In this document: piece by piece, positions 33,883 to 53,931 of the stretch
How the letters are laid out: every line of letters starts with the position of its first letter
Position numbering within the stretch: position 1 is the stretch's first letter
Origin: a plasmid
NCBI RefSeq assembly: GCF_054482525.1
Contig: NZ_JBTHVG010000003.1
Reading direction: 5' to 3' (one strand)
DNA length: 64,000 nucleotides
Program-made: the position numbers and the translations under genes
Notes under the pieces: model-generated
What the model was told of the DNA's origin: nothing
Seen by the model: the letters and a program-made list of their open reading frames with translations, nothing else
The model's database searches: none

Positions 33883-36800
33883 GTGAAACTTAGAAAAACA
33901 ATCACCTCAGCGATTATTGCATCAATGGTTGCCAATACTATGAGTTGGGCTTTTTATGTCACACTCATAAACATGGTAATGACACCACGTGTTTACGCTG
34001 CTGACGCTATATTTGACCAGCTCGAAAATAATTTTAACCTTGCAAATCCTAACGCAAATCGCAATGCAACCACCAGTGCTCAGGACATTGTGGAGAAATA
34101 CAAGAACGCGGATTCAGGCGAGAATGTCAGTGGGAAGATCACCGAGAAATACGTGGGTAAAGCCGAATCCGCTAATCTTAATCTCGGGAAGTATGGGGCA
34201 GGGAACTCTAATGAAAGTGTCATGAAAAATGCCGCATCCGATGGAAAGTCTATTGGTAGCGCCGTACAACTGCCGAGTATGTCTGGAGGGACAATCAATT
34301 CAAACTACACCAAGGAAGGGGCAAAGCTGCTCTCTCGTGATGCTAATGGCAACATTGGTATAAGCAGTAATCCCAATACTACTCCTGGAACCAAAACAAA
34401 TACGGGAGAGATTTTCAGCTCAGAGCAAAAGCACAGCGATATAAAGTTCAACGCCGCAGATCGTTATGGGGATGAGGATGGCTTTGTTAACGATATAAAG
34501 AATCGGAAAAGCCAGTTATTTGATGCTCAAAGTTATGATGGCGTTGCCTACCGCACCCTCGTAAATGCTAACAAGGACAACCCGGCATCGTCTGTAAAGC
34601 CTAACGATCCCATGTTTACTGCGGGGAGAAATGAGATAACCAATGCTGTTGCTGGTACTGGAAACTGGCTTCAGAACTGTAATGTTGAGACCTCCAAAAA
34701 AACAGTAACCACACACTATCCTGATTACAAAGAGTTCTACTGTAACTCGCCTAAGCAAGATAACTTCAGCAGCTGCACGATAACTCGTGACTTCTCTGTT
34801 CCTGTATACATTTCAGGCGGAAACGGAGACATGTCGATGTGCGGCGATAATTGTGTGCGTATATGGTTTGGTCGCCGTGATGACAACTACTGGAGTGACG
34901 GGGTATTTGATAACGAACTGACATTAAAATTCCATCCGGATGCAAAATTGGCCTCAGCAAAGATTGTTAACGCGGAGTGGGATGACCACATGCGGGTAAC
35001 ACTTGATGGCACGCAGATTTTTGCTCACATAGATGGTGCATATCGAGAAAGTGACTATCCGGCTCCAAAGGGATCTTGGGAGTTAAAAAAATCGTGGAAA
35101 CTCGACAAAGTATACGATGTAACTGAAAAGGTCAGAAAATCAGTTTATGAAGAACCTGATCGTGAAGTGACAATGGCATCCAGAGTCTGGGTTGGTGGGG
35201 GAGGTGAAGGGTACTTTGAGGTTGAGCTGACGTTTGAAAATATGAAGCTCGAAGATAAGCACGTCCAGGAACCAGCTGGTTGTTACGATGCTGTACAAAC
35301 ACCAAATACATTCTGCCGTTTCGATCGGTTTAAAGATATGGATGTTGGCACGAAGCGGCTTCCGGAAAGCGTGCTTTCTATGGCAAAGCCGCTGTATGAA
35401 GGCGATAAAGGCTTTCTTACCTGGAAGACTAACCTTGAAGGCTATTTTTGTGATCCATTGGCTAAAGACAAGATTTGCTCTTATGACGCCAGTGGGAAAA
35501 TTATGAAAGACGCTAATGGAAAGGACCTCTGTTACAACTACGAAGAAATTAAGAGTATGCCTGATGCATGTAGTTCTTATAAAAATGATGCAGCATGTGT
35601 ACTCGATAAACAAACATGTGCAGAGGGTTGGTTCGATGAGGGCACTAACAGCTGCTACATGTATGAACAGAAATACACCTGTGACAGAGGTAAGGATGTA
35701 GTTCGTGAGGTTGAATCTTCTACAAATGCCTGTGTTGGCATGATCCCATGTTCTGGAGGAACATGCGAAACTGGGCCAAAGGAAGAGAACAACGATTTTG
35801 GAAAAGTTGCGGCTTATTCAAACATGGTTCAGTACATGCAGGGCGAAGCCAAATGCGAAGACCCTAACGATGCCAATTCCTGTTCTGTCTTTGAAGGAAA
35901 ACCTGAATGGTGTGGTCGTTCAGTAGGCTTTGTAAATGGCCTGGCAAAGACGGACTGCTGCGAAGCACCGCAGGGAACCGCAGGAGCACTTGAAGGTATC
36001 ATGCTTGCCGGATCTATGATCAGAAACACTAACTGGACCAGAGTTAATGCTCAGCTAATAAAATGGACCGGCGGTGATACAGGTACATGGGCTTCTATGT
36101 CCAATGCGGTCGGTGAGTGGACTGCATCAGCTGGTAAAACAGTAGGGCAAATGTGGAACAATGTCACGAGCTCCTTAACGAGCGTATATGAAAACGTCGC
36201 TGGTAATCTAAGCAGGGCAGTTGGGTCTTCCGCAACTTCTGGAGGGGCAGGAGGTGCTGGCCAGTTGGCACAGGAAACAATGTCCAGCTTCGGTATAGGT
36301 CAGCTTAAGCAGATGGCAATGAAGAAAGCCTACGAATTGCTACCAGATACAGTTCGAGACTTTGTCTTTAAGAACGTTGCTACTACCGGAGGAGAGGTTG
36401 TCTTCTCGGCTGCGGTTCAAAACTTTATGCTTGCATTAAACGTGATCGGTTGGATTTATACAGCCTATCAGGTCACTAAAATGCTTTTAGAAATGTTGGT
36501 AGCATGCGACCAGAAAGAGATGGAAGCTTCTATTCATAAGAATCAAAAATCCTGTTTTACATTAGATACGGAACGATGCGTCAAATATCTGAATGTTGGT
36601 TTCACAAAGAAATGCGTTAAAAAAGCAACAGACATGTGCTGTTATAATTCCATGTTGTCACGCGTTATTATGCAACAAGCTTATCCGCAATTAGGAATAG
36701 ACCCTGTCGCCTCTAATTGCGTGGGGCTATCAATAAAGCAAATACAGCAACTGGATTTCGATAAAATTGATCTGACGGAGTGGATTAATGATGCAGTTCA

Positions 36801-37071
36801 GGTAGGAGAAGTTCCTGATCAATATTCAAAATTCTCCGAAGAATCAATTGTGGAAAACTTACCATTCCAGAATGAGAACTATCAACTTCCATCAGAACGT
36901 ACCAAGGAAGCAATGGGCGGTGAAGAAAATATGATAAAGGCCAGACAAGAAAATGCTCAGGCTATAAAAGAGGAAAATGTAGATTGTAGCTATTTACCTC
37001 GACCGGCCATATGTGAGGTAGGTTCAACTACGCTGGATCCGGTTACGGGCAAGCAGTTGCCGAAATATTGA
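33883..37071 (+). CDS. traN: Mating-pair stabilisation outer-membrane protein TraN-like
   Basis: 1062 aa with a Cys-rich central/C-terminal region. GTG start with an AAGGAG ribosome-binding site. Follows traU. Confidence 0.6.
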   Translation: MKLRKTITSAIIASMVANTMSWAFYVTLINMVMTPRVYAADAIFDQLENNFNLANPNANRNATTSAQDIVEKYKNADSGENVSGKITEKYVGKAESANLNLGKYGAGNSNESVMKNAASDGKSIGSAVQLPSMSGGTINSNYTKEGAKLLSRDANGNIGISSNPNTTPGTKTNTGEIFSSEQKHSDIKFNAADRYGDEDGFVNDIKNRKSQLFDAQSYDGVAYRTLVNANKDNPASSVKPNDPMFTAGRNEITNAVAGTGNWLQNCNVETSKKTVTTHYPDYKEFYCNSPKQDNFSSCTITRDFSVPVYISGGNGDMSMCGDNCVRIWFGRRDDNYWSDGVFDNELTLKFHPDAKLASAKIVNAEWDDHMRVTLDGTQIFAHIDGAYRESDYPAPKGSWELKKSWKLDKVYDVTEKVRKSVYEEPDREVTMASRVWVGGGGEGYFEVELTFENMKLEDKHVQEPAGCYDAVQTPNTFCRFDRFKDMDVGTKRLPESVLSMAKPLYEGDKGFLTWKTNLEGYFCDPLAKDKICSYDASGKIMKDANGKDLCYNYEEIKSMPDACSSYKNDAACVLDKQTCAEGWFDEGTNSCYMYEQKYTCDRGKDVVREVESSTNACVGMIPCSGGTCETGPKEENNDFGKVAAYSNMVQYMQGEAKCEDPNDANSCSVFEGKPEWCGRSVGFVNGLAKTDCCEAPQGTAGALEGIMLAGSMIRNTNWTRVNAQLIKWTGGDTGTWASMSNAVGEWTASAGKTVGQMWNNVTSSLTSVYENVAGNLSRAVGSSATSGGAGGAGQLAQETMSSFGIGQLKQMAMKKAYELLPDTVRDFVFKNVATTGGEVVFSAAVQNFMLALNVIGWIYTAYQVTKMLLEMLVACDQKEMEASIHKNQKSCFTLDTERCVKYLNVGFTKKCVKKATDMCCYNSMLSRVIMQQAYPQLGIDPVASNCVGLSIKQIQQLDFDKIDLTEWINDAVQVGEVPDQYSKFSEESIVENLPFQNENYQLPSERTKEAMGGEENMIKARQENAQAIKEENVDCSYLPRPAICEVGSTTLDPVTGKQLPKY

Positions 37072-37072
37072 A

Positions 37073-37097
37073 GAAGGGGCCGTTAGGCCCCTTTTTT
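37073..37097. terminator. Bidirectional intrinsic terminator between convergent traN and the lipoprotein gene
   Basis: ggggccgttaggcccc hairpin flanked by a T-run on the plus strand and an A-run upstream. Confidence 0.6.
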
Positions 37098-37099
37098 AA

Positions 37100-37972
37100 T
37101 TACTTGGCTTTCAATGTTTTTTCTGGGAAGCCTTTTTTACCGTATTCACCGGTAAAGAGGTAATAATCTTTTCCGTTGATGGAGGCTGCAACACCCCCTG
37201 GAGTTGTTGTATTTGGGCTATCAGAACGGAAAATGATACCCGAAAAATCAGCGCTTGTTTCGTTTCCTTTAAATGGGATGAACACATAACGAATTACAGC
37301 GTAATCACCAGCGGGAAGGTTTAGCTGAGGAATTTCGGTTCCTGTTGCGGGGCGAATCGCCTGAAAGCTGTACATTGAATCTGTAGGGAAAACATCAGCA
37401 TCAGGCTTAGAGGGCAGATCACAGGTACTCCATTTATTGACGACTGCCATATCAATTTTACATGTGGCCAGAGCTGCTTTCTGTTTTTCAGGGTTGTATC
37501 CAAATGAGGCCTGAGTTGCTTTTGTATGCTCAAAAACATACTTAGCTCCTTCACGTACCAAACTTTCATCATTGTAAGGCAATTTTTTTGGATTGGGGAC
37601 GAACACTAGGTATTGATTGACCTGGATGTATTCGGCGTCAGAAGAACTGTACAAAGAGCCGAGGCTCATGATCCCAAAACCTTTTAGACCGCCTGTTACG
37701 TAGCCCATCGAACTATTGATGAGATACTTAGAAAGAAAGTTGTCGGCATCCCCTCCAGGAGTAACCTCTTGCTCCTTAAAATTAACGTCGAAACCAGCAA
37801 ACGAATAGGCATTCTTGGCGACAGAATCATTTGCTTTAGCATGCCAGTACTGGCCGTGACTGTACGCATTCAGAGCGGTGCCTGGCGTAGTGCCGGTGTC
37901 ACCGGCACAACCCGATAGGGAAAAACCAATGACGACAGAAGAGACCAGAGATACTAAACGTAAAAGTTTCAT
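37100..37972 (-). CDS. Hypothetical lipoprotein
   Basis: 290 aa, lipobox LSGC after a signal peptide. Confidence 0.4.
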   Translation of the reverse strand: MKLLRLVSLVSSVVIGFSLSGCAGDTGTTPGTALNAYSHGQYWHAKANDSVAKNAYSFAGFDVNFKEQEVTPGGDADNFLSKYLINSSMGYVTGGLKGFGIMSLGSLYSSSDAEYIQVNQYLVFVPNPKKLPYNDESLVREGAKYVFEHTKATQASFGYNPEKQKAALATCKIDMAVVNKWSTCDLPSKPDADVFPTDSMYSFQAIRPATGTEIPQLNLPAGDYAVIRYVFIPFKGNETSADFSGIIFRSDSPNTTTPGGVAASINGKDYYLFTGEYGKKGFPEKTLKAK

Positions 37973-38151
37973 TTAAAGCCCTTTTTGTAATGTCTTTTGG
38001 AGATGGAACCATTATTCCATAGTCACGCGTTTCACAAACAACCTGATTGCATAAAAAAGGAAAAAAAGTGATTTCCAGTAGAACCAGCAGTACACAAGAA
38101 AAGCGCTTTTATAAAAATGTATAATTATTAAAACGAAGTAATGAGGTTGAA

Positions 38152-39936
38152 ATGGGTAAGCCAACAGAAGAGCAAAGACCTGTTATCGAGAATGCTAGCG
38201 CAAACAATATGGTGATAGCAGCGCCTGGATCAGGCAAATCATTCACCATGATAGAAGCGGTTATATCGATTCTCAAAAAGTATCCATATGCAAGAATCGG
38301 GATGGTGACCTTTACTCGCGCTGCAACAAACGCACTTGCAGCAAAGTTACAAAAGCGATTGAGCAAGAAGGATCTTGACCGGGTGCTGGTGGATACTTTT
38401 CACGGACTCGTTAAGAAGCAACTGGACATGATTCGCTGGCCGGGAAAGATGTTGATAGGGCCAGCACAGAGATCTGTCATTCACCGGGCTTTGAAAGAAT
38501 CCGGTGTAACGATGAAGTTTGCTGAAGCTGAATTCGTTATTGATGCTATCGGCAGAGAAATGGATACGGATGTGATTTCAGTTCGGCATAACAGACAACA
38601 GATCCATTTATTTAATACCTATCAGGCGTTATGCCAGAAAGACCATGTGGCGGACCTCAATGCTCTTTCAAAATTTGTTGTCGGTCAAATGCATTCGGGA
38701 AAAATGCGCACGTTAGATTTGACACATTTGATAGTAGACGAAGTTCAGGATACTGACTCTATACAATTCTCATGGATAGCATTGCATACAAGAGCTGGAG
38801 TCTATACGAGTATAGTTGGAGACGATGATCAGGCCATCTACTCCTTCAGATCCTCAGGAGGAGTCAAAATATTTCAACAGTTTGAAAAACACTTCAGACC
38901 TAACATATTTTACTTAAACACATGCTTTAGGTGTGAACCTGAAATTTTAGAGGTGGCCGGAGCACTGATAGGAAAGAATGTTTACCGTTATGCCAAAGAG
39001 TTACGCTCGGCAAAAAAGGGAGGAGGAAAGGTCACTTTTCGTTCATATGTAGATATGGAGGAACAGATACAGGGTATTTTAAGCCTTATAAATCAGGATC
39101 CACATGGATGGGCAATTCTAAGCCGCAATAATGCTCACTTGGATGAGCTAGAAAGTTTGATCGAACAGCCAGTAATTCGTTACGGAGGTAAATCATTCTG
39201 GGATGAAAAAGAAACAAGCGATGTGTTAAGCCTTATGGCCTTTTTCCGACAATCAAATGATCCTCGCTTAATGAAGAGAGTATTGGCATTGTTTGGAGAA
39301 CAGGAATCAGTTTTGGATGATGTGGCATTGAGTATGAGAGGAAGAAAAGTTACTTTTGGCGACCTTGCCATCCCGGAGGACAGTTCTCTCGAAACAAAAA
39401 CATTACATTCAAACTTCGTGCGCTTTACCCAGGAAAGTACTGATAAAGTTGAGATAGCAAAACGTTTCGCCAACCTTACGAAATGGATGGAATCGTCGTC
39501 AATCAAGATGAGGAGTAATAAAGGTACAGCAACCTTAACAAAAATTGCTTTAGACACTTGTAAACAGTGGGCAGAAAAGACTGGTTGGATGAATATGATC
39601 AATCGTGCTGCTGCAATGTCATTAGGCCCTAGGAAGAAGGACGAGGAATACAGCCCAGAGAAAGTAGTCCTATCAACCTTGCATGGTTCAAAGGGTCTTG
39701 AGTGGAATAAAGTAATAATAATGAGTTGTAATGCGGATCAGATACCAAGTAAAAGATCAGTTGGGGAGGAGGCAATAGAAGAAGAAAGACGTTTGCTTTA
39801 TGTTGGATTTACGCGTGCAGAAAAGCAACTTTTTGTAATGTGGTATGGTGACCCTTCTTTCTTTTTAAGAGAATGCAGTGAAGAAAAGATAAAAGAAGCA
39901 GCTAATATTCGAATTTCTCCAGTTTATACAGAATAA
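38152..39936 (+). CDS. UvrD/PcrA-like superfamily I DNA helicase (short form)
   Basis: 594 aa. Motif I AAPGSGKSF, motif II VDEVQD, motif III GDDDQAIYSFR, C-terminal LSTLHGSKGLEW. GAGG ribosome-binding site. Confidence 0.85.
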   Translation: MGKPTEEQRPVIENASANNMVIAAPGSGKSFTMIEAVISILKKYPYARIGMVTFTRAATNALAAKLQKRLSKKDLDRVLVDTFHGLVKKQLDMIRWPGKMLIGPAQRSVIHRALKESGVTMKFAEAEFVIDAIGREMDTDVISVRHNRQQIHLFNTYQALCQKDHVADLNALSKFVVGQMHSGKMRTLDLTHLIVDEVQDTDSIQFSWIALHTRAGVYTSIVGDDDQAIYSFRSSGGVKIFQQFEKHFRPNIFYLNTCFRCEPEILEVAGALIGKNVYRYAKELRSAKKGGGKVTFRSYVDMEEQIQGILSLINQDPHGWAILSRNNAHLDELESLIEQPVIRYGGKSFWDEKETSDVLSLMAFFRQSNDPRLMKRVLALFGEQESVLDDVALSMRGRKVTFGDLAIPEDSSLETKTLHSNFVRFTQESTDKVEIAKRFANLTKWMESSSIKMRSNKGTATLTKIALDTCKQWAEKTGWMNMINRAAAMSLGPRKKDEEYSPEKVVLSTLHGSKGLEWNKVIIMSCNADQIPSKRSVGEEAIEEERRLLYVGFTRAEKQLFVMWYGDPSFFLRECSEEKIKEAANIRISPVYTE

Positions 39937-40330
39937 TTCGATATGGGCATTTACTTATGCTTAAAGCTATAGTATAAAAACAATGAGCTTAAATATCAGC
40001 TCCCAAATTTGAGTAACTTTGCTTAAAGTTACTTTCGCGTTAAGCGTTGATTTAGCCGTGAAAAGCGGCCAGCTTAAACAAGCTGTAAGACACCACCGGC
40101 AAAATGTCACCTTTGTCGCTGGTGCACTTCCCATGCCTGAAAAAGGCAATCTGAATTTACCAAACCGTAACTAATTTAGCTCCTCCTGGAGCTATTTTTG
40201 TTGCGTACTTCTAATGCCAGATAGTATAAATCAGGCGGTTCATAGCTTACGGGAGATGAATGACAGGCTTTGCCTTCGTGTTGAAACAAAAAATTGTTTC
40301 TTCCTTCTTACTATATATAGGTGACCCCAA

Positions 40331-41203
40331 ATGTCTAAAAATAAAGCTCGCAGTAAAGCCCTTCATCAAACCTTTAGTGAAATTATTCCAGAGATGGATA
40401 AGGCGCTAAACAAACAGCTCTTAGAAGTTCTGATGAAATATACAGAACGTGATAATGAACTGATTGTTATTTTGAATGAGGACGGCCCAAATATCATTGA
40501 ACTTAAGTCTCTTAAGCCTGTGTCGTTGTTGGCCGAAAAGCTTTCTGCTTATTCAAGCTATTATCATGTGGATGTTGTGGAGCTCGTGGTCAAGAAAATT
40601 GATTTCGAAGGAGCTTATAAGCTTCTTAAAGCTTCCCCAGATGTACCACTTTTTAAAAGCTTAACTGAACTGGATAAATATCTTGTTGAGGAGTTTGAAA
40701 AATACGGATTAAATTCATTTCTTGACGTGGATAATCTGGATTACTCACTTGAAAAAGCCAGTGAACTCAAAAATGAGCAGTTAATAAATTGGGTTTCGGA
40801 CATCATTTGCAAACGTGAAAAATTAACTTTACGTAAGCGTTTTGATGTCGCAGTAAAGGCCCACTACGAAAATGTAGAAAAAATGTATGATACCATTCGT
40901 CCGTTAATGAAAAAACTGGGTTTCCCAGAAGATCTCATGACGCACACCTTTAGTGAGTTAAGCGTTTTTGAAACTAAAGGATGGGACCATGCAATAAAAT
41001 CGAAAATTGAGACTCTCGCTAAGCGTGAAACTCAATATTTAGATGATGCGGCTAAAGCAGAGAATCGACGTCTTGTAACAGAGAAGTTGGAGAACTCTTT
41101 AGCGATTGCACCAACTAAACCAACAAGAAATTGGTTACATATTGCCGGAATTGCCTGTTTGGTAGTCTGCACGTTCATGTATGTAACTAATAAATTTATT
41201 TAA
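40331..41203 (+). CDS. Hypothetical protein with C-terminal transmembrane anchor
   Basis: 290 aa, hydrophobic tail (WLHIAGIACLVVCTFMYV). Confidence 0.35.
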   Translation: MSKNKARSKALHQTFSEIIPEMDKALNKQLLEVLMKYTERDNELIVILNEDGPNIIELKSLKPVSLLAEKLSAYSSYYHVDVVELVVKKIDFEGAYKLLKASPDVPLFKSLTELDKYLVEEFEKYGLNSFLDVDNLDYSLEKASELKNEQLINWVSDIICKREKLTLRKRFDVAVKAHYENVEKMYDTIRPLMKKLGFPEDLMTHTFSELSVFETKGWDHAIKSKIETLAKRETQYLDDAAKAENRRLVTEKLENSLAIAPTKPTRNWLHIAGIACLVVCTFMYVTNKFI

Positions 41204-41260
41204 TCCTGTTAAGGGGGAACCCTAACGGGGCTTCTCTTTGAACAAATCGAGGAGCGGAAA

Positions 41261-41638
41261 ATGTCATATCTTGAATATATCAATGAAGTAAAAGTGTCCG
41301 GGATAGTTATCAGTGCTGTGGAGAAAAAAATGACTGACCAGAGTATAGGTTTGTTAATAAAGCTCAAAAATAGGATGAAGACAGAAGTTGATGGTGAAAT
41401 CACTGAGAGAGAATTTTCAGTTCAAATCAAGGTGTCGCCTGAAATGTATTCAACCTGTTTCACTGGTATAAATCAGGGTGATGAGTTGATGGTCTCCGGT
41501 TATATTGTTGTCGATACTATTATGATTGAAGGGAGAGAACATCCTCTTGACTACATGAGAGTGGTAGCAACAAGTAAGTTGGCTCACATACCTAAACCTC
41601 TAAAAGGTTTTGGACAAAGTAGCTTTAATCAGATCTGA
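41261..41638 (+). CDS. Putative OB-fold ssDNA-binding protein (SSB/PriB-like)
   Basis: 125 aa. Beta-strand pattern (NEVKVSGIVISAV ... ELMVSGYIVVDT) resembles PriB/SSB OB-folds by eye. Weak call. Confidence 0.3.
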   Translation: MSYLEYINEVKVSGIVISAVEKKMTDQSIGLLIKLKNRMKTEVDGEITEREFSVQIKVSPEMYSTCFTGINQGDELMVSGYIVVDTIMIEGREHPLDYMRVVATSKLAHIPKPLKGFGQSSFNQI

Positions 41639-41698: not shown

Positions 41699-42676
41699 AT
41701 GAAACAAAAATTTAGGGCTACTGCAATAAGTAGTAATCAACTTAGTTTTTTTTCTATACTCGATATAGATGAAGATGAAATAACGCAAATAGTTGATTCA
41801 CCCAAAGAGCATTTAAATGATGCTTACACGTCCGGATTAAACTTTAAATCAGAAGAAAGTAACATTTCTGAGATAAATTATGATTCTGAAAGGCGTGAAA
41901 ATCACCTTTATGAAAAATCCAAATTACTTAAAAATCAGATTTTGCATACAATTAATTTTGCAGCAGAAACAGATTATCTATATACGGTTGAAGAATATAA
42001 CCCAGATTTGGGTGGTCTGGTAATAGAATGGACCCCTGAGGATGTGTATGTTGTTTTTCTATCCGCTATGGAAGAGTCTTTGGAAATCATTAAAGAACTA
42101 GTGTTGAGGAGAAAGTTATTCTTCAAAGATGACAATGGTAATATCACAGTGAATCCACTTTTAGAAGCTGAAACACGGTGGTATATGTCAAAATCATTTG
42201 AATACACTTGTTTATGTCATGGACTTGATGCATGTGAATTTAGAGCGGAATTAAAATCATGGCTCTATTATCATTCGCATCGTTCGATTAGTGAAAACAC
42301 GAAATTAGCTGAATGCAGGAATGATGATGAAATCATTTTGCATGATTGCAATGACGATATGGGCTGGGACATCTTCTTTGATCAGGATTATTTAATGTCA
42401 GAAAAAAAACTGGCTGTTAAATGGACTGACAGGGAAATTATGGATGTTTACATAAAAGCTTTTAAATCCACATTAGAGTTGTTTGACGAGCTTGTTTCAT
42501 GTGATCTGTTAACTAAACGAAACGCTTTTGGCAAGTTAGAAATCAATCCAATATTCGAAAATCATTTTGAATGGATCATGTCTGAAGCTTTTGAAATAGT
42601 GGGAAATCATCTTGGTTATAATGTGCCTCAAATCAGGAAACTGATGGCAACTATTTGCCAAATGAATCTCAAATAA
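41699..42676 (+). CDS. Hypothetical protein
   Basis: 325-aa ORF, acidic. Confidence 0.35.
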   Translation: MKQKFRATAISSNQLSFFSILDIDEDEITQIVDSPKEHLNDAYTSGLNFKSEESNISEINYDSERRENHLYEKSKLLKNQILHTINFAAETDYLYTVEEYNPDLGGLVIEWTPEDVYVVFLSAMEESLEIIKELVLRRKLFFKDDNGNITVNPLLEAETRWYMSKSFEYTCLCHGLDACEFRAELKSWLYYHSHRSISENTKLAECRNDDEIILHDCNDDMGWDIFFDQDYLMSEKKLAVKWTDREIMDVYIKAFKSTLELFDELVSCDLLTKRNAFGKLEINPIFENHFEWIMSEAFEIVGNHLGYNVPQIRKLMATICQMNLK

Positions 42677-42733: not shown

Positions 42734-43792
42734 ATGTCTAATGCCGCTATGAAGTTAAATGAAACATCTTCTGATGCTTATGAAAAATTAGAAGCTCTTC
42801 TTTCCCCGGATGTTATAAAGTTAAAACATTATGTGGATAAAGGTGAGTATCTTTTAGTTCTAGCAAAGGACCTTTTTGGTATTCCAGAAATGGATCCAAA
42901 GATGGCTGTGCCTGTTTTCAAAACTAAAACCTCGTATCGAGCTCCGCTGAACAAAGACTACATACCAAATCCCCGAATACTTGAACAAGTGGTTAAACTG
43001 CTTATCAGTCCGGATATAGATTTAAGTGTGTGTCTTAAAGGTGAGTCCGGTTCTGGCAAGACTGAAATGGTAATGTACATTAGCCACATGATGAATTGGC
43101 CGCTGACAATTAAGCAGATCAACAGCAATATTCGAGTTGATGAGCTTGAAGGTGAGCGCAGTCTTAATGGTGGTAATACAGGTTTTGTACACAGCGATTT
43201 GGTAACGGGATTTCGTAATGGTCACCTCATTCTTCTGGATGAAGTGGACAAAATCGATCCTGATACGGCAGCAAAACTTCACATGCCCATTGAACGTAAG
43301 CCCTGGTCACTCAGTGCTAATGGTGGTGAGGTTATAACTGCTAATGGCTACACGCGATTTATTGGTACTGCAAACACAAACATGAGTGGAGGCGCTCGCC
43401 GGTTCGTTTCTTCTCAACGTCAAGATGCAGCTTTTATAAAGCGGTTCTTGATAGTTGAAATGGAGAAGCCCGACAAAGTTGCTTTAACCAATGTGCTTAC
43501 TAAACGATATAGCTCTTTGCCTTTTCAGGTCATTGAGAAGTTCGTAAGAGTAGCGATTGCAGTAAATGACTCTGGTACAGAAGACAGTGTGATGGATATT
43601 CGTCAATTAGTAGCTTGGGTTGGCACGTCGATGACGTTAAAAACCTTTAGTCTTCTTGACACTTTCAAAATAGCTTTTGCTTCTGCTTTACCTTTACATG
43701 TGGTCGATCTTGTTCTTCAAGCTATAGATCTTTCTCTTGGCGAAGACAAGGATAAATCGCTGGAGTATTTCACAGCAAAAAAGTCGAGTTAG
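42734..43792 (+). CDS. MoxR/CbbQ/CobS-like AAA+ ATPase
   Basis: 352 aa. Walker A GESGSGKT, Walker B LILLDEVDK. Partner vWA gene two genes downstream. Confidence 0.8.
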   Translation: MSNAAMKLNETSSDAYEKLEALLSPDVIKLKHYVDKGEYLLVLAKDLFGIPEMDPKMAVPVFKTKTSYRAPLNKDYIPNPRILEQVVKLLISPDIDLSVCLKGESGSGKTEMVMYISHMMNWPLTIKQINSNIRVDELEGERSLNGGNTGFVHSDLVTGFRNGHLILLDEVDKIDPDTAAKLHMPIERKPWSLSANGGEVITANGYTRFIGTANTNMSGGARRFVSSQRQDAAFIKRFLIVEMEKPDKVALTNVLTKRYSSLPFQVIEKFVRVAIAVNDSGTEDSVMDIRQLVAWVGTSMTLKTFSLLDTFKIAFASALPLHVVDLVLQAIDLSLGEDKDKSLEYFTAKKSS

Positions 43793-44101
43793 ATGGGATT
43801 TGTTATGAAACCTCTGATATTTGTATCTCAGAGTTATCCCATCTTGAATTTAGTGCGTTTTTAAGTACGGATGGTGCTGCTACCATTGCTATAGCAAAAA
43901 ACGGAACTAATTTTACTGGACTTATGCAACTGAATAACGACTATTCTTTATTGTTTTATCATGATGGTAAAATAAATATGGAAGGTCTGATTAAACAAAT
44001 GGAATTAAAAGGTTATATGTATCAGGGAGCAATGGGCAATGATGATGTTGTTGCTGAGTTTCCCGGTATTCTTTTAATTTCACCAGAGAAGCTTTAATAT
44101 C

Positions 44102-44150
44102 AACCCTATCGGGAAATCTTTCCCGTTGGGGAGGGTTTCCCCTTTTTTTT
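44102..44150. repeat. Conserved palindromic intergenic element / putative terminator
   Basis: aaccctatcgggaaatctttcccgttggggagggtttcccctttttttt. Confidence 0.5.
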
Positions 44151-44160
44151 GGAGAAACCC

Positions 44161-45288
44161 ATGACTTTAAATACTTCAATGCTTAACAAAGTATCTGCAA
44201 AACAAATCTCTGAGAATTTTGCAAAATCATATCCAGATTTACTGGAAGGTGCAGTTATAACAAAAATTGAAATAAGTGGCTGTCAAGGATCGCGTCGAAC
44301 CGATAAAATCGATTTGTCTTATGATGGAGATGATATTACGGATCAAAAAAGCGTATCTAAAAGCGAAGTACGCTGGATTGACATAAAAGCCCTTAGCTTC
44401 AAAAGTACGATTACCAGCAGAATATCAACTCTTTGCTCACGCTTGTGCATCCGCTATAGCAATATGTGGATTTTACCAGTATCCAGTATGGAAGAGTTTC
44501 TGGAAGGGGCCCAAGAGATTGAACGAGAGTTTCAGGCAGGTATTCAAAACGTTGTAGACAATTATGAGATGCATATTGAGGCTGAAAAAAATAGAAGCCC
44601 AAGAATGTCTTCTTTGATTGATCAGTTGAAATTAACTAAAGATGATTTCATAAAATCCTTTAGATTTAATATTGCTCACTTTATTCCTTTTACGCCTATT
44701 AGCGTTGAAGGTGATGAAACCCAGGACTACTATCAGGAACAATTGATAACAGATCTGGCAGAAGAAGCAATGAAGGTTTATGAAAAAATTAGCAAAAATA
44801 ACAATTTGCGCTCAAGTACTATTGACCGACTGAAGCAAATGCAAAATAAGATCATTAGCTTCATGTTTATACATAAAGAGGCGGCAGTACTTGCAGAAGC
44901 TATAAAACACATAATGAATAATTTACCTAAAGGTGCCATTTCTGAACCTCGCGACGTTGCGGTGTTACAGCAGTGGTTTTATTTCATGAGTGATGCTTCA
45001 ATGTTAAAGCGTATTATTTCAGGAGAGCAAAAGGTTACTGACTGGTTGGAATCTATTACCAGATCATTTAATCAAAGCTCACAAACAGAACCGAACGCGC
45101 TACAGAACACAGGTATTGAAGCTATTTTAGATTCAACAAATGTGTTCCAGGTTGAACCTGTCGTAGAGAACGATATAAATAACAGCACGTTTTCAAACAC
45201 TGATCCTGTAGCTGAACCTGAGAAATCAGTTTCGCAACAGGAAGACAATGTTGAAAATGGTTTTGATATCGAGCTCAAAGGCTGGTAA
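44161..45288 (+). CDS. Hypothetical protein
   Basis: About 375 aa; ATG at 44161 with a GGAG ribosome-binding site. Lies between the AAA+ and vWA genes. Confidence 0.35.
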   Translation: MTLNTSMLNKVSAKQISENFAKSYPDLLEGAVITKIEISGCQGSRRTDKIDLSYDGDDITDQKSVSKSEVRWIDIKALSFKSTITSRISTLCSRLCIRYSNMWILPVSSMEEFLEGAQEIEREFQAGIQNVVDNYEMHIEAEKNRSPRMSSLIDQLKLTKDDFIKSFRFNIAHFIPFTPISVEGDETQDYYQEQLITDLAEEAMKVYEKISKNNNLRSSTIDRLKQMQNKIISFMFIHKEAAVLAEAIKHIMNNLPKGAISEPRDVAVLQQWFYFMSDASMLKRIISGEQKVTDWLESITRSFNQSSQTEPNALQNTGIEAILDSTNVFQVEPVVENDINNSTFSNTDPVAEPEKSVSQQEDNVENGFDIELKGW

Positions 45289-45306
45289 CTGTTTGCTTTA
45301 TTAAAA

Positions 45307-45350
45307 ACCCCAGATGGGTACTTCACCATCTGGGTGAGTACCCCTTTTTT
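45307..45350. repeat. Conserved palindromic intergenic element / putative terminator
   Basis: cccagatgggtacttcaccatctgggtgagtacccctttttt. Confidence 0.5.
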
Positions 45351-45365
45351 ATAAAGAGGTATTCT

Positions 45366-47378
45366 ATGAAATTAGATCTTAAATCATCACCGCGCCATAT
45401 TAAGCGTTTACAGAATATAGCAAAAGTCATTAGCGGCTTAGGCGATGTAAGAGTTGTAATAGACGACAATACCAAAGGACCGTATTTTGATCCTGTAAAT
45501 AAAGTTTGTGTTTTACCAAACGGCGATTATAGCGATGATGACTTTGTCAGTCTGATTGAAGGTTTTACCTGTCATGAAGCTGGTCATGGTCGCTATACCG
45601 ACAGCGAGGTTTACAGTGACGCCTTTAATAGTGTTCTCAAGTCATCTGAAGGGTTTACACGCTTCGATGACGGAATGAATGCAGAGTTTGAGAGCCTCGC
45701 TGAGAAACGTAAAGCTTATAGCAGGGCAAAACGTCTTACCGGGCTTATAAATCTGTTCGATGATGTACAGATGGAAGAGAAGGTTGGTAACGATTATCCG
45801 GATGCAAAGCGGCGGCTTGCAGCCACTTACGCACTGATGGTTAAAGCCGGAAGGATGACTCCTGATATATCTTCTCGTCCGGAAAATCCTGTCCTATTTA
45901 TTGAGTGGTATCTGCTTAACTCATTGCGAGTAAAAGTCCTTCAGCAGGCAGGTCACAAAGAAACACTCGATCCGTTTTTTGACTATGCCCAAAAGATACT
46001 TTCTCCAGTAATTTCTGATGTTGAGGAAATTTTTCATGATGCTCTTGGTTGTGAAAATACTCAGGGCTGTGAATCCCTTGCTCGTAAGACCCTGGCTCTT
46101 TTAGAGAGACTGCGGGATGAGGCAAGGGAACAACAGCAGCAGACAGAGCAGGAGGAGCAGGAGGCATATGATGAATCCGAGACCGATACCGATACCGATA
46201 CCGAATCAGAAGATAAATCGCTTGAGTCGACTGATAGTCGTGAGGATGATTCTGAGGACGATAGTGAAGGTCAGGCAGATACTTCCGATAACTCTGATCT
46301 TGCTCAAGAGGGATGTTCTGAGCCTTCAGAACTTGCTGAAGATAACGAGGGAAATAATGAACCCACCGGTGGCAATCCCACAGGTGATAACATTATTGAA
46401 GACGATACTGATGCGATTAACCCTTCCGAGAGTGAATCAGATGAAGCCAGTTCGACTAACGTTGAAGATGAAAGTAACTTTTCATCGGCTCAATGGGAGA
46501 TACTGGCAGATTTGTTGGATGCCTTTCTTGGCAGTGATGAGGATAGCGAAGATTATCACGATGCTTTGGCTAAAGAGATTGAAGGTATTGCATCAAAAGT
46601 ATCCGATGACGTGAAAGCCGAATTCGGTGCTTCTGAATGGGATATCCCTGATCTCCTTATCGATTTGAATGTTTACAATGAGGCTTTGTCTCTGAGTCAT
46701 TCAATCGGTAGCGACTTGTCTGTTTTACAGCAGGTTAAAATGCGTGGCCGAAACAAAACTCATGAGCGTGGAATTACCTTCGATGGAAATCGATTAATTC
46801 TGTCACCAATGGGAGTTCGTGATGTCTTCAGAGCTCAAAGCGAATCTAAAAATAGAGGGCATGTTGGCCTCGTATTAGTTCGTGATATTTCAGCGTCAAT
46901 GGCTAATGATGAAAGATATATTCATGCCATTAAGTCAGATCTTGCTTTATCGATGGCCGCTGAAAGTTTGTCAAAAATGCATGTCTCCAATATAGTCTTT
47001 CCCTTCAAGGAAAGTGAATTTGAGATTATCAAAACGTTTGATCAAAGCGTTGAGGAATCTCTATCGAAATTCACTCTTGGATGTAAGGGTTATTATACCC
47101 CTACGGGATCGGCTTTAATGGCAGCTGTTGATCTGTTACTTGACAGCCAATTCGATAGGAAAATAATTTTTCTTATAACTGATGGTTATCCGAATAAATC
47201 GGAATTTACTATCGGCGAAGTTATGGAAAAGGCTAAGTGTAATGGAATAGAAATCGTTGGTGTTGGTATTAAGACTGATGAAATAATTGGTTTTGAAACG
47301 GACACTTTCGTAACAGTTGATGATACTTCTTTATTGTCTATTGAAGTCAGTAAGCTAGTTCATCAAATACTTTCTTAA
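45366..47378 (+). CDS. von Willebrand factor A (vWA/MIDAS) protein, CobT-like, with a highly acidic low-complexity linker
   Basis: 670 aa. MIDAS DxSxS (VRDISASM). Central acidic tract (EQEEQEAYDESETDTDTDTESEDKSLESTDSREDDSEDDSE). Paired with an upstream MoxR-type ATPase. Confidence 0.7.
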   Translation: MKLDLKSSPRHIKRLQNIAKVISGLGDVRVVIDDNTKGPYFDPVNKVCVLPNGDYSDDDFVSLIEGFTCHEAGHGRYTDSEVYSDAFNSVLKSSEGFTRFDDGMNAEFESLAEKRKAYSRAKRLTGLINLFDDVQMEEKVGNDYPDAKRRLAATYALMVKAGRMTPDISSRPENPVLFIEWYLLNSLRVKVLQQAGHKETLDPFFDYAQKILSPVISDVEEIFHDALGCENTQGCESLARKTLALLERLRDEAREQQQQTEQEEQEAYDESETDTDTDTESEDKSLESTDSREDDSEDDSEGQADTSDNSDLAQEGCSEPSELAEDNEGNNEPTGGNPTGDNIIEDDTDAINPSESESDEASSTNVEDESNFSSAQWEILADLLDAFLGSDEDSEDYHDALAKEIEGIASKVSDDVKAEFGASEWDIPDLLIDLNVYNEALSLSHSIGSDLSVLQQVKMRGRNKTHERGITFDGNRLILSPMGVRDVFRAQSESKNRGHVGLVLVRDISASMANDERYIHAIKSDLALSMAAESLSKMHVSNIVFPFKESEFEIIKTFDQSVEESLSKFTLGCKGYYTPTGSALMAAVDLLLDSQFDRKIIFLITDGYPNKSEFTIGEVMEKAKCNGIEIVGVGIKTDEIIGFETDTFVTVDDTSLLSIEVSKLVHQILS

Positions 47379-47386
47379 TAAACTCT

Positions 47387-47423
47387 ACCCAATCGGGGCA
47401 AAAGGCCCCGGTGGGTCTTTTTG
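47387..47423. repeat. Palindromic intergenic element / putative terminator
   Basis: cccaatcggggcaaaaggccccggtgggtctttttgc. Confidence 0.5.
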
Positions 47424-47449
47424 CTCCATGAAGGAATAAGGAGCAAAAT

Positions 47450-47671
47450 ATGACTCAGATAAAAACTTACCGTGTAGAACATGAAAAAGTCGGTGCGATG
47501 CATAAAGTCCGTATTTTCGGACGTGTTGGTGAAGTTATAAGCAATGATAGCCCTCAGGAAAGAATCTTCCGCGAAGTCACTATAGCGGAGGGTAATAGCC
47601 AGCAGGCTGCGTTACTTGTAGATAACTACATACAGTGTCTTGAGAATAATGGCTTCACGACTGAAGCATAA
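47450..47671 (+). CDS. Hypothetical small protein
   Basis: 73-aa ORF flanked by two palindromic elements. AGGAG-like ribosome-binding site (aaggagcaaaatatg). Confidence 0.35.
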   Translation: MTQIKTYRVEHEKVGAMHKVRIFGRVGEVISNDSPQERIFREVTIAEGNSQQAALLVDNYIQCLENNGFTTEA

Positions 47672-47676
47672 ATGTT

Positions 47677-47700
47677 GAGGGCCCCCGGGCCCTCTTTCTT
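47677..47700. terminator. Putative intrinsic terminator (GAGGGCCCCCGGGCCCTC palindrome)
   Basis: Perfect GC palindrome followed by a T-rich run. Confidence 0.55.
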
Positions 47701-47784
47701 AAATTCTGCGTTGTGGGTTTCTCCCTGTCTTCTGCACCGCAGAAGGCATTGAGAAACTCACAATGCCAGATAAGAGAGATCATC

Positions 47785-49017
47785 ATGACTTATGCATCCC
47801 CGGCTCTTCGTCGTAATCCACAGGAAGTATCTGAACACTTTATTAAACTCGTTCATGCTCGAATTGCTGAAGTGTCTGGCTGGAAGTATATATTCGAAAG
47901 AATACCTGCTTTCAAAGACGCTTGTGCAAAAGCCCCGAGCCAGGTTCCTTGCCCGTTTACTGGCGCAGGGAAATCGAAGTTTCGTTTCCGACAAAAAGAC
48001 CTTTATACCGGATGTGCGATCCATAATGACTTTCCGGTAAATGAGTTTTGCGACGGAATTGATGTTCTGGCGAAATATTATGAATTAAGTAAAACGCAGA
48101 CTTGCAAAAAGATTCTCTCAGATTTTTTCGGGATGGATCTGCATGCTCCGTTAACTGACGCCGACATTGAAAATGAACGACGCTATAAATCAGCAGTTCG
48201 TGCCACAGAAACTCTTGACCGAGAGGAAGTGGCAAAGCGAATGCGAAAACTTGATGTGATGTATCACTATACCGGTGAAATCAAGCCTAATACTCCTGTT
48301 GCTTTGTACCTCCGTAATCGTGGGATCTCCCGCTTACTGAGTCACTTACCAAAGGATTTAGGCTTTAATAACCGGATCTACTATTGGGATAAAGATAAGC
48401 AGAAATCGATTATCTATCCGGGAATGATTGCGATCTATCGTGACACCCGAGGTCGGCCTCTGACTATTCATAGAACATACGTAGACAAAAATGGTGATAA
48501 GGCACCTGTAGAAAATCCAAAGCTGATGATGAAGCCTCCTGCCGATATGACAGGTGGCTCAATTCAGTTGTTTGACCCTCACTATGATTCAGGTAGTTCG
48601 ACCTGGACACTGGGAGTGGCTGAAGGGATCGAGAACGCGCTTTCTGTTGTAGAAGCGACTTCAACACCATGCTGGGCAGCCAGCTCCGCATGGTGCCTTG
48701 AAAACGTTACTGTTCCTGATTTTTTACTGCCTCCGCCGGATGTAAAATCTATAAACTTTTATATCTGGGCGGATAAGGATATTGCTAACTCACAAGGCAC
48801 TCGTGCCGGTATTGAAGCTGCTCAGCGACTTCAAAGCCGCATGGTTGAGTTTTTGGCTAAACGATATCCCGCATCAAAGCTGACAATTGAAGTCTTCGAA
48901 CCAGCACAAGATATTCCTGATGGGAAAAAGGGTATCGACTGGAACGATGTTCTCCAGTTAACAGGGCAGGATGGATTCCCGATTCACTGGGCTCCTGAAT
49001 GTCTTAATCAGCTGTAA
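47785..49017 (+). CDS. Primase-like protein (degenerate primase zinc-ribbon-like segment plus Toprim-like domain)
   Basis: PCPFTGAGKSKFRF resembles the CPxCGGxDRF primase zinc-ribbon motif. Toprim-like acidic motifs (LGVAEGIENA; IWADKDIANSQG). ATG at 47785 with an AGAGAG ribosome-binding site. Confidence 0.55.
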   Translation: MTYASPALRRNPQEVSEHFIKLVHARIAEVSGWKYIFERIPAFKDACAKAPSQVPCPFTGAGKSKFRFRQKDLYTGCAIHNDFPVNEFCDGIDVLAKYYELSKTQTCKKILSDFFGMDLHAPLTDADIENERRYKSAVRATETLDREEVAKRMRKLDVMYHYTGEIKPNTPVALYLRNRGISRLLSHLPKDLGFNNRIYYWDKDKQKSIIYPGMIAIYRDTRGRPLTIHRTYVDKNGDKAPVENPKLMMKPPADMTGGSIQLFDPHYDSGSSTWTLGVAEGIENALSVVEATSTPCWAASSAWCLENVTVPDFLLPPPDVKSINFYIWADKDIANSQGTRAGIEAAQRLQSRMVEFLAKRYPASKLTIEVFEPAQDIPDGKKGIDWNDVLQLTGQDGFPIHWAPECLNQL

Positions 49018-49887: not shown

Positions 49888-50766
49888 ATGAAGTTAGCTA
49901 CGGACCTGGTAAAAGCTATTTTGATTAGAAATGGCGTTGAACCAGTAAATATAAGCGAATCATCTAAGTTATCTTTGAAACAACCACTGACAGAACTTAA
50001 ATTCAGTTTATATTTGCGAACTGAGCATTTATCTCACTTCCTACCCGGTTATGTTTATTCTATAAAAGAATGTCCACTGTCATATGACATCGGGATCGAA
50101 ATTCAGAAAATCTTCGAAAGTTTACATTTGTTAAACGAAGAATTTGAATCCCTCGGTTTTGTTTCTGTATGGATAGAAATGCATCAAAGCATTTTTGAAC
50201 AAAGTCGGTTTAAGAAAAGTAACTTTACTTTTCGGGAGGAAGAGGTCGAGCTTGCTAAAGGGCTTGTTTGTTCTCACAATTCACAAATAAGTAATGCGGC
50301 TTATTTCTGGCTTCAGCACTTTGAGGAGTTTATGATTTATGTTCGTAATAAGCTTATCGACCTCTTTCGAGAGGCCTATGACCTGATCCTTGGAATGCAG
50401 CAAGTATTTTTCATTCGGGAAAAGGAAGAGCTGTTGAAAACTATAAGTTATGGCGATGAGCTGTATGAGGTGAAATTCATGGCGGCTGAGCTTTACTCTA
50501 TCGAACAGAACTTAAAGTGTTCTGAATCGATAAGTACAAAATCTCAAGCTTCGGCATATATTAACCGCATCCGTGAGTTTGTGCGTTCGGGGTGGAGGCA
50601 GGGCTATATAGTCTGCCATCATAAGCGAAGTAATCAAATTTCATCATTGTCATTACCGATGTACTTGAAAGATACGTCAGGCCGAAGTGCTCGAAAGCGA
50701 GTAAAACGTCTTATATCTTCTACAGTTTGTGGTAGAAATAAAGATTTAGGTCTTACAGATTTTTAA
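49888..50766 (+). CDS. Hypothetical protein, paralogue 1 of a five-gene tandem family
   Basis: 292 aa. N-terminal pattern (MKLATDLVKAILIRNGVEP...) shared with the next four ORFs. Confidence 0.4.
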   Translation: MKLATDLVKAILIRNGVEPVNISESSKLSLKQPLTELKFSLYLRTEHLSHFLPGYVYSIKECPLSYDIGIEIQKIFESLHLLNEEFESLGFVSVWIEMHQSIFEQSRFKKSNFTFREEEVELAKGLVCSHNSQISNAAYFWLQHFEEFMIYVRNKLIDLFREAYDLILGMQQVFFIREKEELLKTISYGDELYEVKFMAAELYSIEQNLKCSESISTKSQASAYINRIREFVRSGWRQGYIVCHHKRSNQISSLSLPMYLKDTSGRSARKRVKRLISSTVCGRNKDLGLTDF

Positions 50767-50776
50767 TTAAATTATA

Positions 50777-50820
50777 CCCATGTGGGGATCACACCCCATA
50801 TGGGAGTGATCCCTTTTTTT
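50777..50820. repeat. Conserved palindromic intergenic element / putative terminator
   Basis: cccatgtggggatcacaccccatatgggagtgatcccttttttt. Confidence 0.6.
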
Positions 50821-50836
50821 ATTGAGAGAGGATCAC

Positions 50837-51772: not shown

Positions 51773-51783
51773 TTAAAATTATT

Positions 51784-51823
51784 TTCTCCCATAGGGATTT
51801 CTCCCTATGGGAGAAATCCCTCT
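51784..51823. repeat. Conserved palindromic intergenic element (GGGATTTCTCCC / GGGAGAAATCCC arms)
   Basis: ttctcccatagggatttctccctatgggagaaatccctc. Perfect 12-bp arms with a 3-nt loop; same arms as the element at 41645-41690. Confidence 0.65.
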
Positions 51824-51840
51824 ATTAAGAGGGTATTGAA

Positions 51841-52761: not shown

Positions 52762-52766
52762 TCTAA

Positions 52767-52810
52767 CCCATCCGGGAACCTGCTTCCCGGTGGGAAGCAC
52801 TTCCTTTTTA
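52767..52810. repeat. Conserved palindromic intergenic element
   Basis: cccatccgggaacctgcttcccggtgggaagcacttccttttta. Preceded by ATCTAACCCA, as is the element at 53879. Confidence 0.55.
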
Positions 52811-52827
52811 GTCATGAGGTAGTGTAA

Positions 52828-53766: not shown

Positions 53767-53878
53767 TCCTTTTGCTTCAGTCCAAAAAAGTAACTTTGGT
53801 TGGCTGAAGACACTTGTCTATGACAATGTAAAATCTGTCGCTGGCATCTTCTTTTAGCTTAACCAAATTTTTATCTAA

Positions 53879-53919: not shown

Positions 53920-53931
53920 AAATTCGAGGTA

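Follow-up and report, generated by a model that had tools for sequence, protein, structure and literature searches.

How motorless MOBH relaxases get their DNA unwound is a question raised by a helicase gene on the plasmid contig NZ_JBTHVG010000003.1 (RefSeq assembly GCF_054482525.1). We analyzed a stretch of 64,000 nucleotides of this contig (the window), in which a sequence-only reading had noticed a superfamily 1 (SF1) helicase of 594 residues and, downstream of it, an OB-fold protein. The helicase gene is trhI of the IncHI plasmids. TrhI is a stand-alone SF1A helicase of the IncHI transfer backbone, and we propose that it is the motor with which the plasmid itself provides for DNA unwinding in conjugation, a reading to which we assign a probability of roughly 0.55. 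The proposal is based on an intact SF1A motor, a relaxase without a motor domain, a conserved linkage to genes for DNA transfer and replication (Dtr) and mating pair formation (Mpf), and the co-induction of trhI in a derepressed plasmid.

Over the 5.7 kb around the helicase gene, identity is 100% with each of more than 1,100 plasmids that have been sequenced from Escherichia, Salmonella, Enterobacter, and relatives. These plasmids are typed as IncHI2 / MOBH / MPF_F, and the open reading frame (ORF) of 594 residues is labeled "IncHI-type conjugal transfer helicase TrhI" in them. The protein is 99–100% identical to IncHI2 TrhI entries and 82–83% identical to its orthologue R0003 from R27, the IncHI1 prototype. 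R27 and the IncHI2 (R478-type) backbones also share the order trhN, lipoprotein gene, trhI, R0002, and R0001, and no structural difference distinguishes their TrhI from the 594-residue protein; the name TrhI itself is based on similarity. In the window, the genes rsp, trhF, trhW, trhU, trhN, the minus-strand lipoprotein gene, and trhI follow each other and form the end of Tra2. Therefore, trhI is not a new gene; it is already annotated in the backbone of a plasmid family that is very common, and it is part of the IncHI conjugative-transfer backbone. The region had been taken for an accessory region of the plasmid, whereas synteny and the identical plasmids place it in the IncHI backbone at the border of Tra2.

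TrhI matches the Pfam profiles UvrD-helicase, UvrD_C, AAA_19, and UvrD_C_2, and its residues 6–564 align to residues 12–614 of Escherichia coli UvrD (E value 6e-33, HMMER). All helicase motifs (Q, I, Ia, II, III, IV, V, and VI) are seen in this alignment, including the C-terminal ones in addition to the N-terminal UvrD motifs that had been recognized before. The SF1A motifs are intact in the N-terminal and the C-terminal part of the protein (GSGKS, VTFT, DEVQDT, VGDDDQAIYSFR, FRC, HGSKGLEW, and EEERRLLYVGFTRA). In an alignment of 30 sequences of the TrhI family, Gly-26, Gly-28, Lys-29, Asp-196, Glu-197, Gln-199, Asp-200, Gly-223, Asp-224, Asp-226, and Gln-227 are invariant, as are Arg-260, His-511, Lys-514, Gly-515, Glu-545, Arg-547, Thr-554, and Arg-555.

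The AlphaFold2 (AF2) model of TrhI, which was built from the same 30-member alignment, reached a predicted local distance difference test (pLDDT) score of 89 and a predicted template modeling (pTM) score of 0.81. When the model was compared with the PDB by Foldseek, the best full-length matches were UvrD, Rep, PcrA, and UvrD from Deinococcus radiodurans (PDB codes 2is6, 1uaa, 1pjr, and 4c2t), with template modeling (TM) scores of 0.66–0.71. In this model, TrhI has the four-subdomain fold 1A/1B/2A/2B, and it is a complete SF1A helicase of the UvrD/Rep/PcrA type. The four-subdomain core and all helicase motifs are thus common to TrhI, E. coli UvrD and Rep, and Gram-positive PcrA, whereas sequence identity amounts to only about 23–25%, and the GIG motif of subdomain 2B is not conserved in TrhI. 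Unlike these enzymes, TrhI has no C-terminal Tudor extension, is plasmid-borne, and is linked to MOBH transfer genes.

With its 594 residues, TrhI is indeed shorter than Rep (673 residues) and UvrD (720 residues), the difference being 80–125 residues. The main cause is found at the C terminus. TrhI ends ∼30 residues past motif VI, so that the C-terminal linker and the Tudor domain are missing; the profile PF21196 is not matched, yet it is matched in database hits of 738 residues. Small trims in subdomains 1B and 2B add to the shortness. The prediction of domains and structure, which had been suggested as a way of defining accessory domains, returned only the UvrD-type core, and neither domain profiles nor AF2 and Foldseek revealed an extra accessory domain. 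Against the NCBIfam equivalogs of chromosomal UvrD, Rep, and PcrA, TrhI scores 176–180 bits, whereas the cut-offs lie at 951–1144 bits. Because of these scores, and with PF21196 absent, TrhI is not orthologous to any of these three chromosomal enzymes. When IncHI1 is compared with IncHI2, the proportion of differing nonsynonymous sites of trhI (pN) is 0.11 and that of synonymous sites (pS) is 0.83, the latter being saturated, which indicates that the gene is under purifying selection.

Outside the IncHI1 and IncHI2 reference plasmids, TrhI-related helicases (570–620 residues, 27.6–78% identity) were found in 11 further loci, 10 of which lie among MOBH or F-type transfer genes. The combination of traN, a minus-strand lipoprotein gene, and the helicase gene occurs in IncHI3, in four IncHI-like contigs, and in the plasmids pSBP1 of Shewanella baltica and pRVS1 of Aliivibrio salmonicida. 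In one metagenomic element the helicase gene directly follows traU, and in two others it is convergent with traI(TraI_2)-traD-x-traJ. In bgla_4p of Burkholderia gladioli, it is co-directional with traI-traD-x-x-DUF4400-x and stands at the end of this row. The eleventh locus is a Vibrio plasmid, where the helicase lies beside an SSB (single-stranded DNA-binding protein), an AAA_5-DUF3150-VWA, and a Toprim block, with no transfer gene within the stretch fetched. Most loci (IncHI3, Vibrio, Shewanella, Aliivibrio, and the metagenomic ones) have SSB, the AAA_5-DUF3150-VWA trio, and/or DUF7146-Toprim near the helicase. Relatives of 26% identity or less stand in chromosomal or DNA-repair contexts, and their association with MOBH is gone, which sets the limit of the TrhI family. 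The search for conserved partners at homologous loci had a divided outcome, since transfer genes and the SSB/AAA-DUF3150-VWA/Toprim genes recur, but the OB-fold family of the IncHI plasmids does not. Although the helicase is routinely annotated, its role is documented by name only, and its neighbors are conserved.

MOBH relaxases are described as consisting of TraI_2 and TraI_2_C (PMC6736028). TraI from R27 (1011 residues) and two other MOBH relaxases linked to such helicases match TraI_2 only and contain no P-loop helicase domain. Expression data from R27 connect trhI with transfer as well. In drR27, a plasmid derepressed through htdA, trhI is up 8.7-fold at 25 °C, and the Mpf genes are up 8- to 28-fold. 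Under the same conditions R0001 rises 19-fold, R0002 61-fold, and R0201–R0206 35- to 115-fold. Both trhI and the downstream cluster with the gene for the OB-fold protein thus respond to the conjugation regulatory circuit, and we regard the rise in drR27 as supportive rather than decisive.

We picture the role of TrhI as follows. The MOBH relaxase TraI, which lacks a motor domain, would nick the transfer origin (oriT), and TrhI would load on the nicked duplex. Its polarity, by analogy with its relatives, is presumably 3′-to-5′, and TrhI would move along the retained strand, displacing the T-strand. The latter would be passed on to the coupling protein, and the retained strand would be replicated meanwhile. 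In this picture, TrhI would act at oriT, and it may interact with TraI or with the OB-fold protein and may be required for transfer. The downstream cluster, comprising the OB-fold protein, a Toprim primase-like protein, and an AAA-VWA pair, probably handles single-stranded DNA that arises from transfer; the OB-fold protein would not be a dedicated subunit of the helicase.

A precedent is known from Gram-positive bacteria. PcrA unwinds DNA from the nicks of rolling-circle initiators and serves NicK, the relaxase of the integrative and conjugative element (ICE) ICEBs1, together with the OB-fold factor HelP (PMC3542172); in ICESt3 it has the same role with OrfL and OrfM (PMC12614216). PcrA and these OB-fold factors are required for the conjugation of both ICEBs1 and ICESt3 (PMC3542172, PMC12614216). 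TrhI may be the plasmid-encoded Gram-negative counterpart of PcrA as it serves rolling-circle initiators and the ICEBs1 relaxase. The proposed job is also that of the MOBF relaxases TraI (F and R1) and TrwC (R388), whose motor unwinds the plasmid from the oriT nick. However, the helicase of MOBF TraI and TrwC belongs to SF1B (RecD-like, 5′-to-3′) and is fused to the relaxase, whereas TrhI is a separate SF1A protein. Unlike them, TrhI would travel on the opposite strand and would be recruited in trans.

Several points weigh against a conjugative motor. The mutational study of R27 Tra2 by Lawley from 2003 reportedly gives a list of essential genes that does not include trhI. In the searchable literature, we found neither an experimental characterization nor a mutant phenotype of trhI, only mentions of the gene name. 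A deletion study of Rts1, a related MOBH/MPF_F plasmid, found 32 genes to be needed for efficient conjugation, and the word "helicase" is absent from that paper; MOBH systems are thus evidently able to run on host helicases. The gene is also not intact everywhere. In at least one IncHI2 record (NZ_MG014720.1), trhI is split by IS903B, and truncated alleles occur on long IncHI3-type contigs (P0021 and P0022). In the globally dominant IncHI1 typhoid plasmids, trhN and trhI are separated by an inserted Tn9/Tn21 resistance island (PMC3139670). In the IncHI plasmids, trhI lies far from oriT and from Tra1. Finally, trhI is flat in R27 microarrays (560 units at 25 °C versus 494 units at 37 °C, 1.13-fold; PMC7366339), unlike most R27 tra genes, which are thermoregulated, and many genes other than tra genes are up in drR27, too. 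Given that no mutant phenotype was found, and in view of the Rts1 gene list, the split and truncated alleles, and the Tn9/Tn21 insertion, TrhI may help to make the plasmid independent of host helicases without being an essential component.

The OB-fold protein, R0001 in R27, was modeled from its nine IncHI homologues (pLDDT 84). The order of strands and helices in the model is E-E-E-H-E-E, the helix lying between strands 3 and 4. Bacterial and mitochondrial SSB and PriB are the top Foldseek matches (probability 1.0; target-normalized TM score, TMt, 0.73–0.79), among them the SSB structures 2vw9, 1qvc, and 5yyu and the PriB structures 1woc and 2pnh. The OB fold that had been assigned before is therefore borne out by the model, and the 125-residue protein is predicted to be of the SSB/PriB type. 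At the level of sequence, by comparison, it has no match in Pfam (including SSB PF00436 and PriB), NCBIfam, PHROGs, or PADLOC, and the sole match is a weak one to SSB from D. radiodurans (E value 0.075). JGI labels the family "primosomal replication protein N." The protein shares the single OB-fold topology with SSB and PriB, and PriB is likewise small. In contrast to SSB, it has no acidic tip at the C terminus, which reads ...KGFGQSSFNQI, and carries the conserved tail PKPxKGFxxSSF instead; as a whole, the protein is slightly acidic, as counted from its sequence. The family was seen only in IncHI1, IncHI2, IncHI3, and IncHI-like plasmids. A protein of 126 residues next to the Vibrio helicase is unrelated and was excluded from the alignment of OB-fold proteins. 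Functionally, the 125-residue protein may be compared with HelP, OrfL, and OrfM from ICEBs1 and ICESt3, since OB-fold proteins of the HelP family work with a helicase of the UvrD family. However, its top fold matches are SSB and PriB rather than HelP-family proteins, and its gene is not co-transcribed with the helicase gene.

The OB gene belongs to a larger cluster. Its first gene encodes a protein of 290 residues, R0002 in R27, which is mostly helical with a hydrophobic C-terminal tail. This protein has no family match in Pfam, NCBIfam, PADLOC, or PHROGs and no meaningful match in the PDB, and its homologues are confined to IncHI plasmids. The OB gene is followed by a gene for 325 residues (R0210 in R27). 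Two staggered BLAST alignments of its product to the IncHI3 homologue indicate an internal duplication of ∼130 residues; it has no family match, and a sequence search of the PDB returned nothing meaningful. Further downstream lies a conserved block from AAA_5 to Toprim. The PHROGs yielded a generic helicase, a CobS-like ATPase, and a primase, with no match for the 290-, 125-, and 325-residue proteins. In R27, the nine genes R0204–R0002, including those for the 290-residue and the OB-fold protein, are induced 5- to 23-fold at 25 °C, the temperature that permits transfer (PMC7366339); the AAA_5-DUF3150-VWA trio is up 10- to 23-fold, R0002 9-fold, and R0001 8.9-fold.

The helicase and the OB-fold protein are probably not one module in the strict sense. 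A terminator, a promoter-like box, and the gene for the 290-residue protein lie between trhI and the OB gene, the two respond differently to 25 and 37 °C, and when IncHI1 is compared with IncHI2, the OB gene shows a synonymous divergence of only 0.41, whereas that of trhI is saturated. In addition, the genes for the 290-, 125-, and 325-residue proteins are an IncHI-only trio, as BLAST found no homologues of the three among the small proteins beside the helicases from Shewanella, Aliivibrio, Vibrio, and the metagenomic elements. A conserved two-gene module of helicase and OB-fold protein beyond IncHI was therefore rejected. The sequence-only reading placed the OB gene downstream of the helicase gene but did not mention the ORF of 290 residues and the conserved gap of 394 bp that intervene.

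This gap is the best-conserved stretch of the 7.8 kb from trhN to the OB gene between IncHI1 and IncHI2. At 40133–40282, identity is 90%, compared with 68–80% in coding DNA. A box of 29 nucleotides (TTCTAATGCCAGATAGTATAAATCAGGCG) is nearly invariant across seven plasmids whose helicases are 49–100% identical; it has a TATAAA at 40226–40231 and is likely to include the −10 element of the promoter from which the thermoregulated cluster is transcribed. No other copies of the box, as a shared tra promoter motif, were found in the window. The gap is also rich in predicted RNA structure, the fold of 39975–40205 having a z-score of −7.0. In the alignment of the seven sequences, 91.7% of the pair cells hold standard pairs, compared with 33–49% when the partners are slid, and 14 pairs show compensatory double changes, compared with 1–6 in the slid controls; none of 500 shuffles reached the observed values, although the structure was derived from the same seven-sequence alignment that was used for this test. 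Many G-U pairs favor the plus (sense) strand. Because the strand preference of these pairs is the wrong one, and because the element is a row of short hairpins instead of one long hairpin, a single-strand promoter of the Frpo type was rejected. The Rfam scan of the whole window gave no match at gathering thresholds, so that the element is not a described RNA family, and a covariance model of 40157–40268 matches IncHI copies only. The element could be a long structured 3′ untranslated region (3′ UTR) of trhI, an independent RNA of ∼220 nucleotides that starts from the conserved TATAAA at 39970–39978, and/or a regulatory region of the cluster. It may combine a small RNA or 3′ UTR with the control region of the thermoregulated R0002–R0204 cluster.

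With these features at hand, three alternatives to a conjugative motor can be weighed. According to the first, which continues the earlier suggestion of a replication or establishment module, TrhI, the OB-fold protein, and the Toprim primase-like protein would convert incoming single-stranded DNA to duplex or help to replicate a large plasmid. We consider this rather unlikely. The OB fold is confirmed by the model, and the nearby primase that had been pointed out is found in the Toprim primase-like gene 7.8 kb away, which contains DUF7146 and Toprim_3 and matches a phage primase family of the PHROGs. In distant MOBH elements, SSB, AAA-DUF3150-VWA, and Toprim are again neighbors of the helicase, and one relative is surrounded by RecT, AcrVA2-like, and DUF2786 genes, as typically found in early or establishment regions. 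However, helicase and cluster are separate transcription units with different regulation and different histories of divergence, and the helicase family is wider than the IncHI-specific trio. In donors, induction of the cluster is strong when conditions permit transfer and when the plasmid is derepressed, and the structured element upstream of it pairs best on the plus strand and is hence no template-strand promoter of the Frpo type. Moreover, deletion of R0206–R0210 (Del19) leaves the stability of R27 unchanged from that of the wild type (PMC4853401), which argues against a role of that block in maintenance or replication. Of the suggested module, a plasmid role in DNA processing is likely to stand, whereas helicase and OB-fold protein do not form one unit but two differently regulated ones.

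The second alternative, which we hold to be improbable, is an accessory helicase for replication and repair that resembles Rep or UvrD, clears roadblocks or recombination intermediates, and so lowers the cost or improves the stability of the plasmid independently of conjugation. UvrD and Rep are the closest relatives of TrhI in sequence and fold, expression of trhI is constitutive and moderate at both temperatures (25 and 37 °C), and UvrD-type helicases of the host are known to modulate the cost of plasmids (mentioned in PMC9599605). Yet the linkage to MOBH and the type IV secretion system is strict across beta- and gammaproteobacterial elements and lost in relatives from repair contexts, trhI is induced along with tra genes in drR27, and the C-terminal domain through which UvrD and PcrA bind partners is missing from TrhI.

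An anti-phage defense helicase, similar to GajB of Gabija or from another helicase-based system, is very improbable: GajB is likewise a short helicase of the UvrD type, with a similar length, and TrhI matches its PADLOC profiles up to an E value of 3e-42, but these matches are weaker than those to Rep (7e-53) and UvrD (1e-51) and therefore reflect the shared SF1A core, no GajB structure is among the top 50 fold matches of TrhI, none of nine neighboring proteins tested matches a GajA or OLD-family model of PADLOC, the only Toprim protein is distant, primase-like, and without an ATPase domain, and the conserved neighbors are transfer genes. PADLOC on ten genes gave only the generic GajB matches for the helicase and two marginal AAA matches, and the defense reading was rejected; the earlier view that the locus is not a canonical Gabija, with no OLD/Toprim partner adjacent to the helicase, holds.

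Upstream of trhI, a hairpin (GGGGCC-GTTA-GGCCCC) followed by a T-run forms an intrinsic terminator in both directions, with free energies of −23.4 kcal/mol (z-score −6.3) on the plus strand and −15.6 kcal/mol (z-score −3.3) on the minus strand. The helicase gene had been described as having its own promoter region after this bidirectional terminator. The terminator is real, but it separates the convergent trhN and lipoprotein genes and is not directly upstream of the helicase gene. Between the lipoprotein gene and trhI, which are divergent, lies a gap of 179 bp with the presumed trhI promoter (TATAAT at 38121–38126 and a ribosome-binding site, GAGG, at 38143–38146). A minus-strand lipoprotein gene is found at this position in all traN-linked relatives of the helicase. 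The lipobox proteins there have 283–349 residues in IncHI3 (43% identical) and in the Shewanella and Aliivibrio plasmids; the position is kept, though the sequences are unrelated by BLAST. The lipoprotein gene R0004 of R27 ranks with that plasmid's most strongly expressed genes (9779 and 5433 units). The features of the locus are collected in Table 1.

Table 1. Features around trhI, in positions of the window
Feature	Position	Strand	Basis
trhN, mating-pair protein of the TraN family, at the end of the trhF-trhW-trhU-trhN transfer block	33883–37071	+	Pfam F_T4SS_TraN, annotation in matching plasmids
Bidirectional intrinsic-terminator hairpin with T-run	37075–37095	both	Sequence, RNA fold
Lipoprotein, 290 residues, R0004 homologue	37100–37972	−	Lipobox LSGC, R27 annotation "lipoprotein"
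Divergent intergenic region, presumed trhI promoter	37973–38151		Read from sequence
trhI helicase, ATG start, 594 residues	38152–39936	+	Profile matches, AF2 model, Foldseek, plasmid annotation
Conserved structured non-coding gap, 394 bp	39937–40330	+	RNA folding, 7-sequence alignment, IncHI1/IncHI2 identity
Gap: candidate −10 element	39970–39978		
Gap: hairpin	40055–40069		
Gap: hairpin	40070–40085		
Gap: hairpin	40091–40124		
Gap: intrinsic terminator	40166–40205		
Gap: promoter-like box, 29 nucleotides	40209–40237		
Gap: leader hairpin	40238–40261		
290-residue protein, R0002 homologue, first gene of the conjugation-induced cluster	40331–41203	+	Mostly helical, hydrophobic C-terminal tail
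Predicted SSB/PriB-like OB-fold protein, 125 residues, R0001 homologue	41261–41638	+	AF2 pLDDT 84, Foldseek
325-residue protein, R0210 homologue	41699–42676	+	BLAST
Conserved block AAA_5 to Toprim	42734–49017	+	Pfam, PHROGs, recurrence in MOBH loci
Block: AAA_5, CobS/MoxR-like	42734–43792	+	
Block: DUF3150	44149–45288	+	
Block: VWA, CobT-like	45366–47378	+	
Block: 73-residue ORF between the VWA and Toprim genes		+	
Block: DUF7146-Toprim_3, primase-like	47713–49017	+	PHROG primase family

Beyond the conserved block, two adjacent plus-strand genes for ∼315 residues each (52828–53766 and 53932–54894) are paralogous, with 27% identity over 309 residues (E value 1e-36). The pair stands within five ORFs of similar size (49888–54894) that have no Pfam match. 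The part of the window beyond ∼49.3 kb corresponds to ∼169–175 kb of R27 (NC_002305). Here, the deletion Del18 (R0202–R0205) was not obtained despite repeated attempts, whereas Del19 was easy; the failure may be technical or may hint at a toxic or essential element. One metagenomic relative of the helicase locus (L004) has AcrVA2-like, RecT, DUF2786/DUF7168, and CoiA-like genes near the helicase (21104–21764 and 19991–20860), which is a gene set of the anti-defense or establishment type.

Returning to TrhI as a conjugative motor, a more far-reaching picture can be drawn, which we put forward tentatively and hold to be less likely than not. For a subset of MOBH relaxosomes, TrhI-type helicases could be the motor that is missing, recruited to the oriT nick by a TraI that lacks a helicase, with the OB-fold protein as a HelP-like factor for processivity or single-stranded DNA. 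Transfer of IncHI plasmids would then be independent of host UvrD and Rep, and the structured RNA/promoter element could act as the switch by which the cluster is tied to the thermoregulated circuit of TrhR, TrhY, and HtdA.

For the most part, our analysis re-identifies an annotated backbone gene. What it adds is the assignment of R0001 to the OB fold, the linkage of TrhI-like helicases to MOBH, and a structured non-coding element upstream of a conjugation-induced cluster. Among the cargo of IncHI plasmids are multidrug, mcr-9, and typhoid resistance determinants. If TrhI is the motor of MOBH transfer, attempts to block this transfer would have a plasmid-specific enzyme as their target, and the PcrA/HelP paradigm would be extended from Gram-positive ICEs to Gram-negative plasmids.

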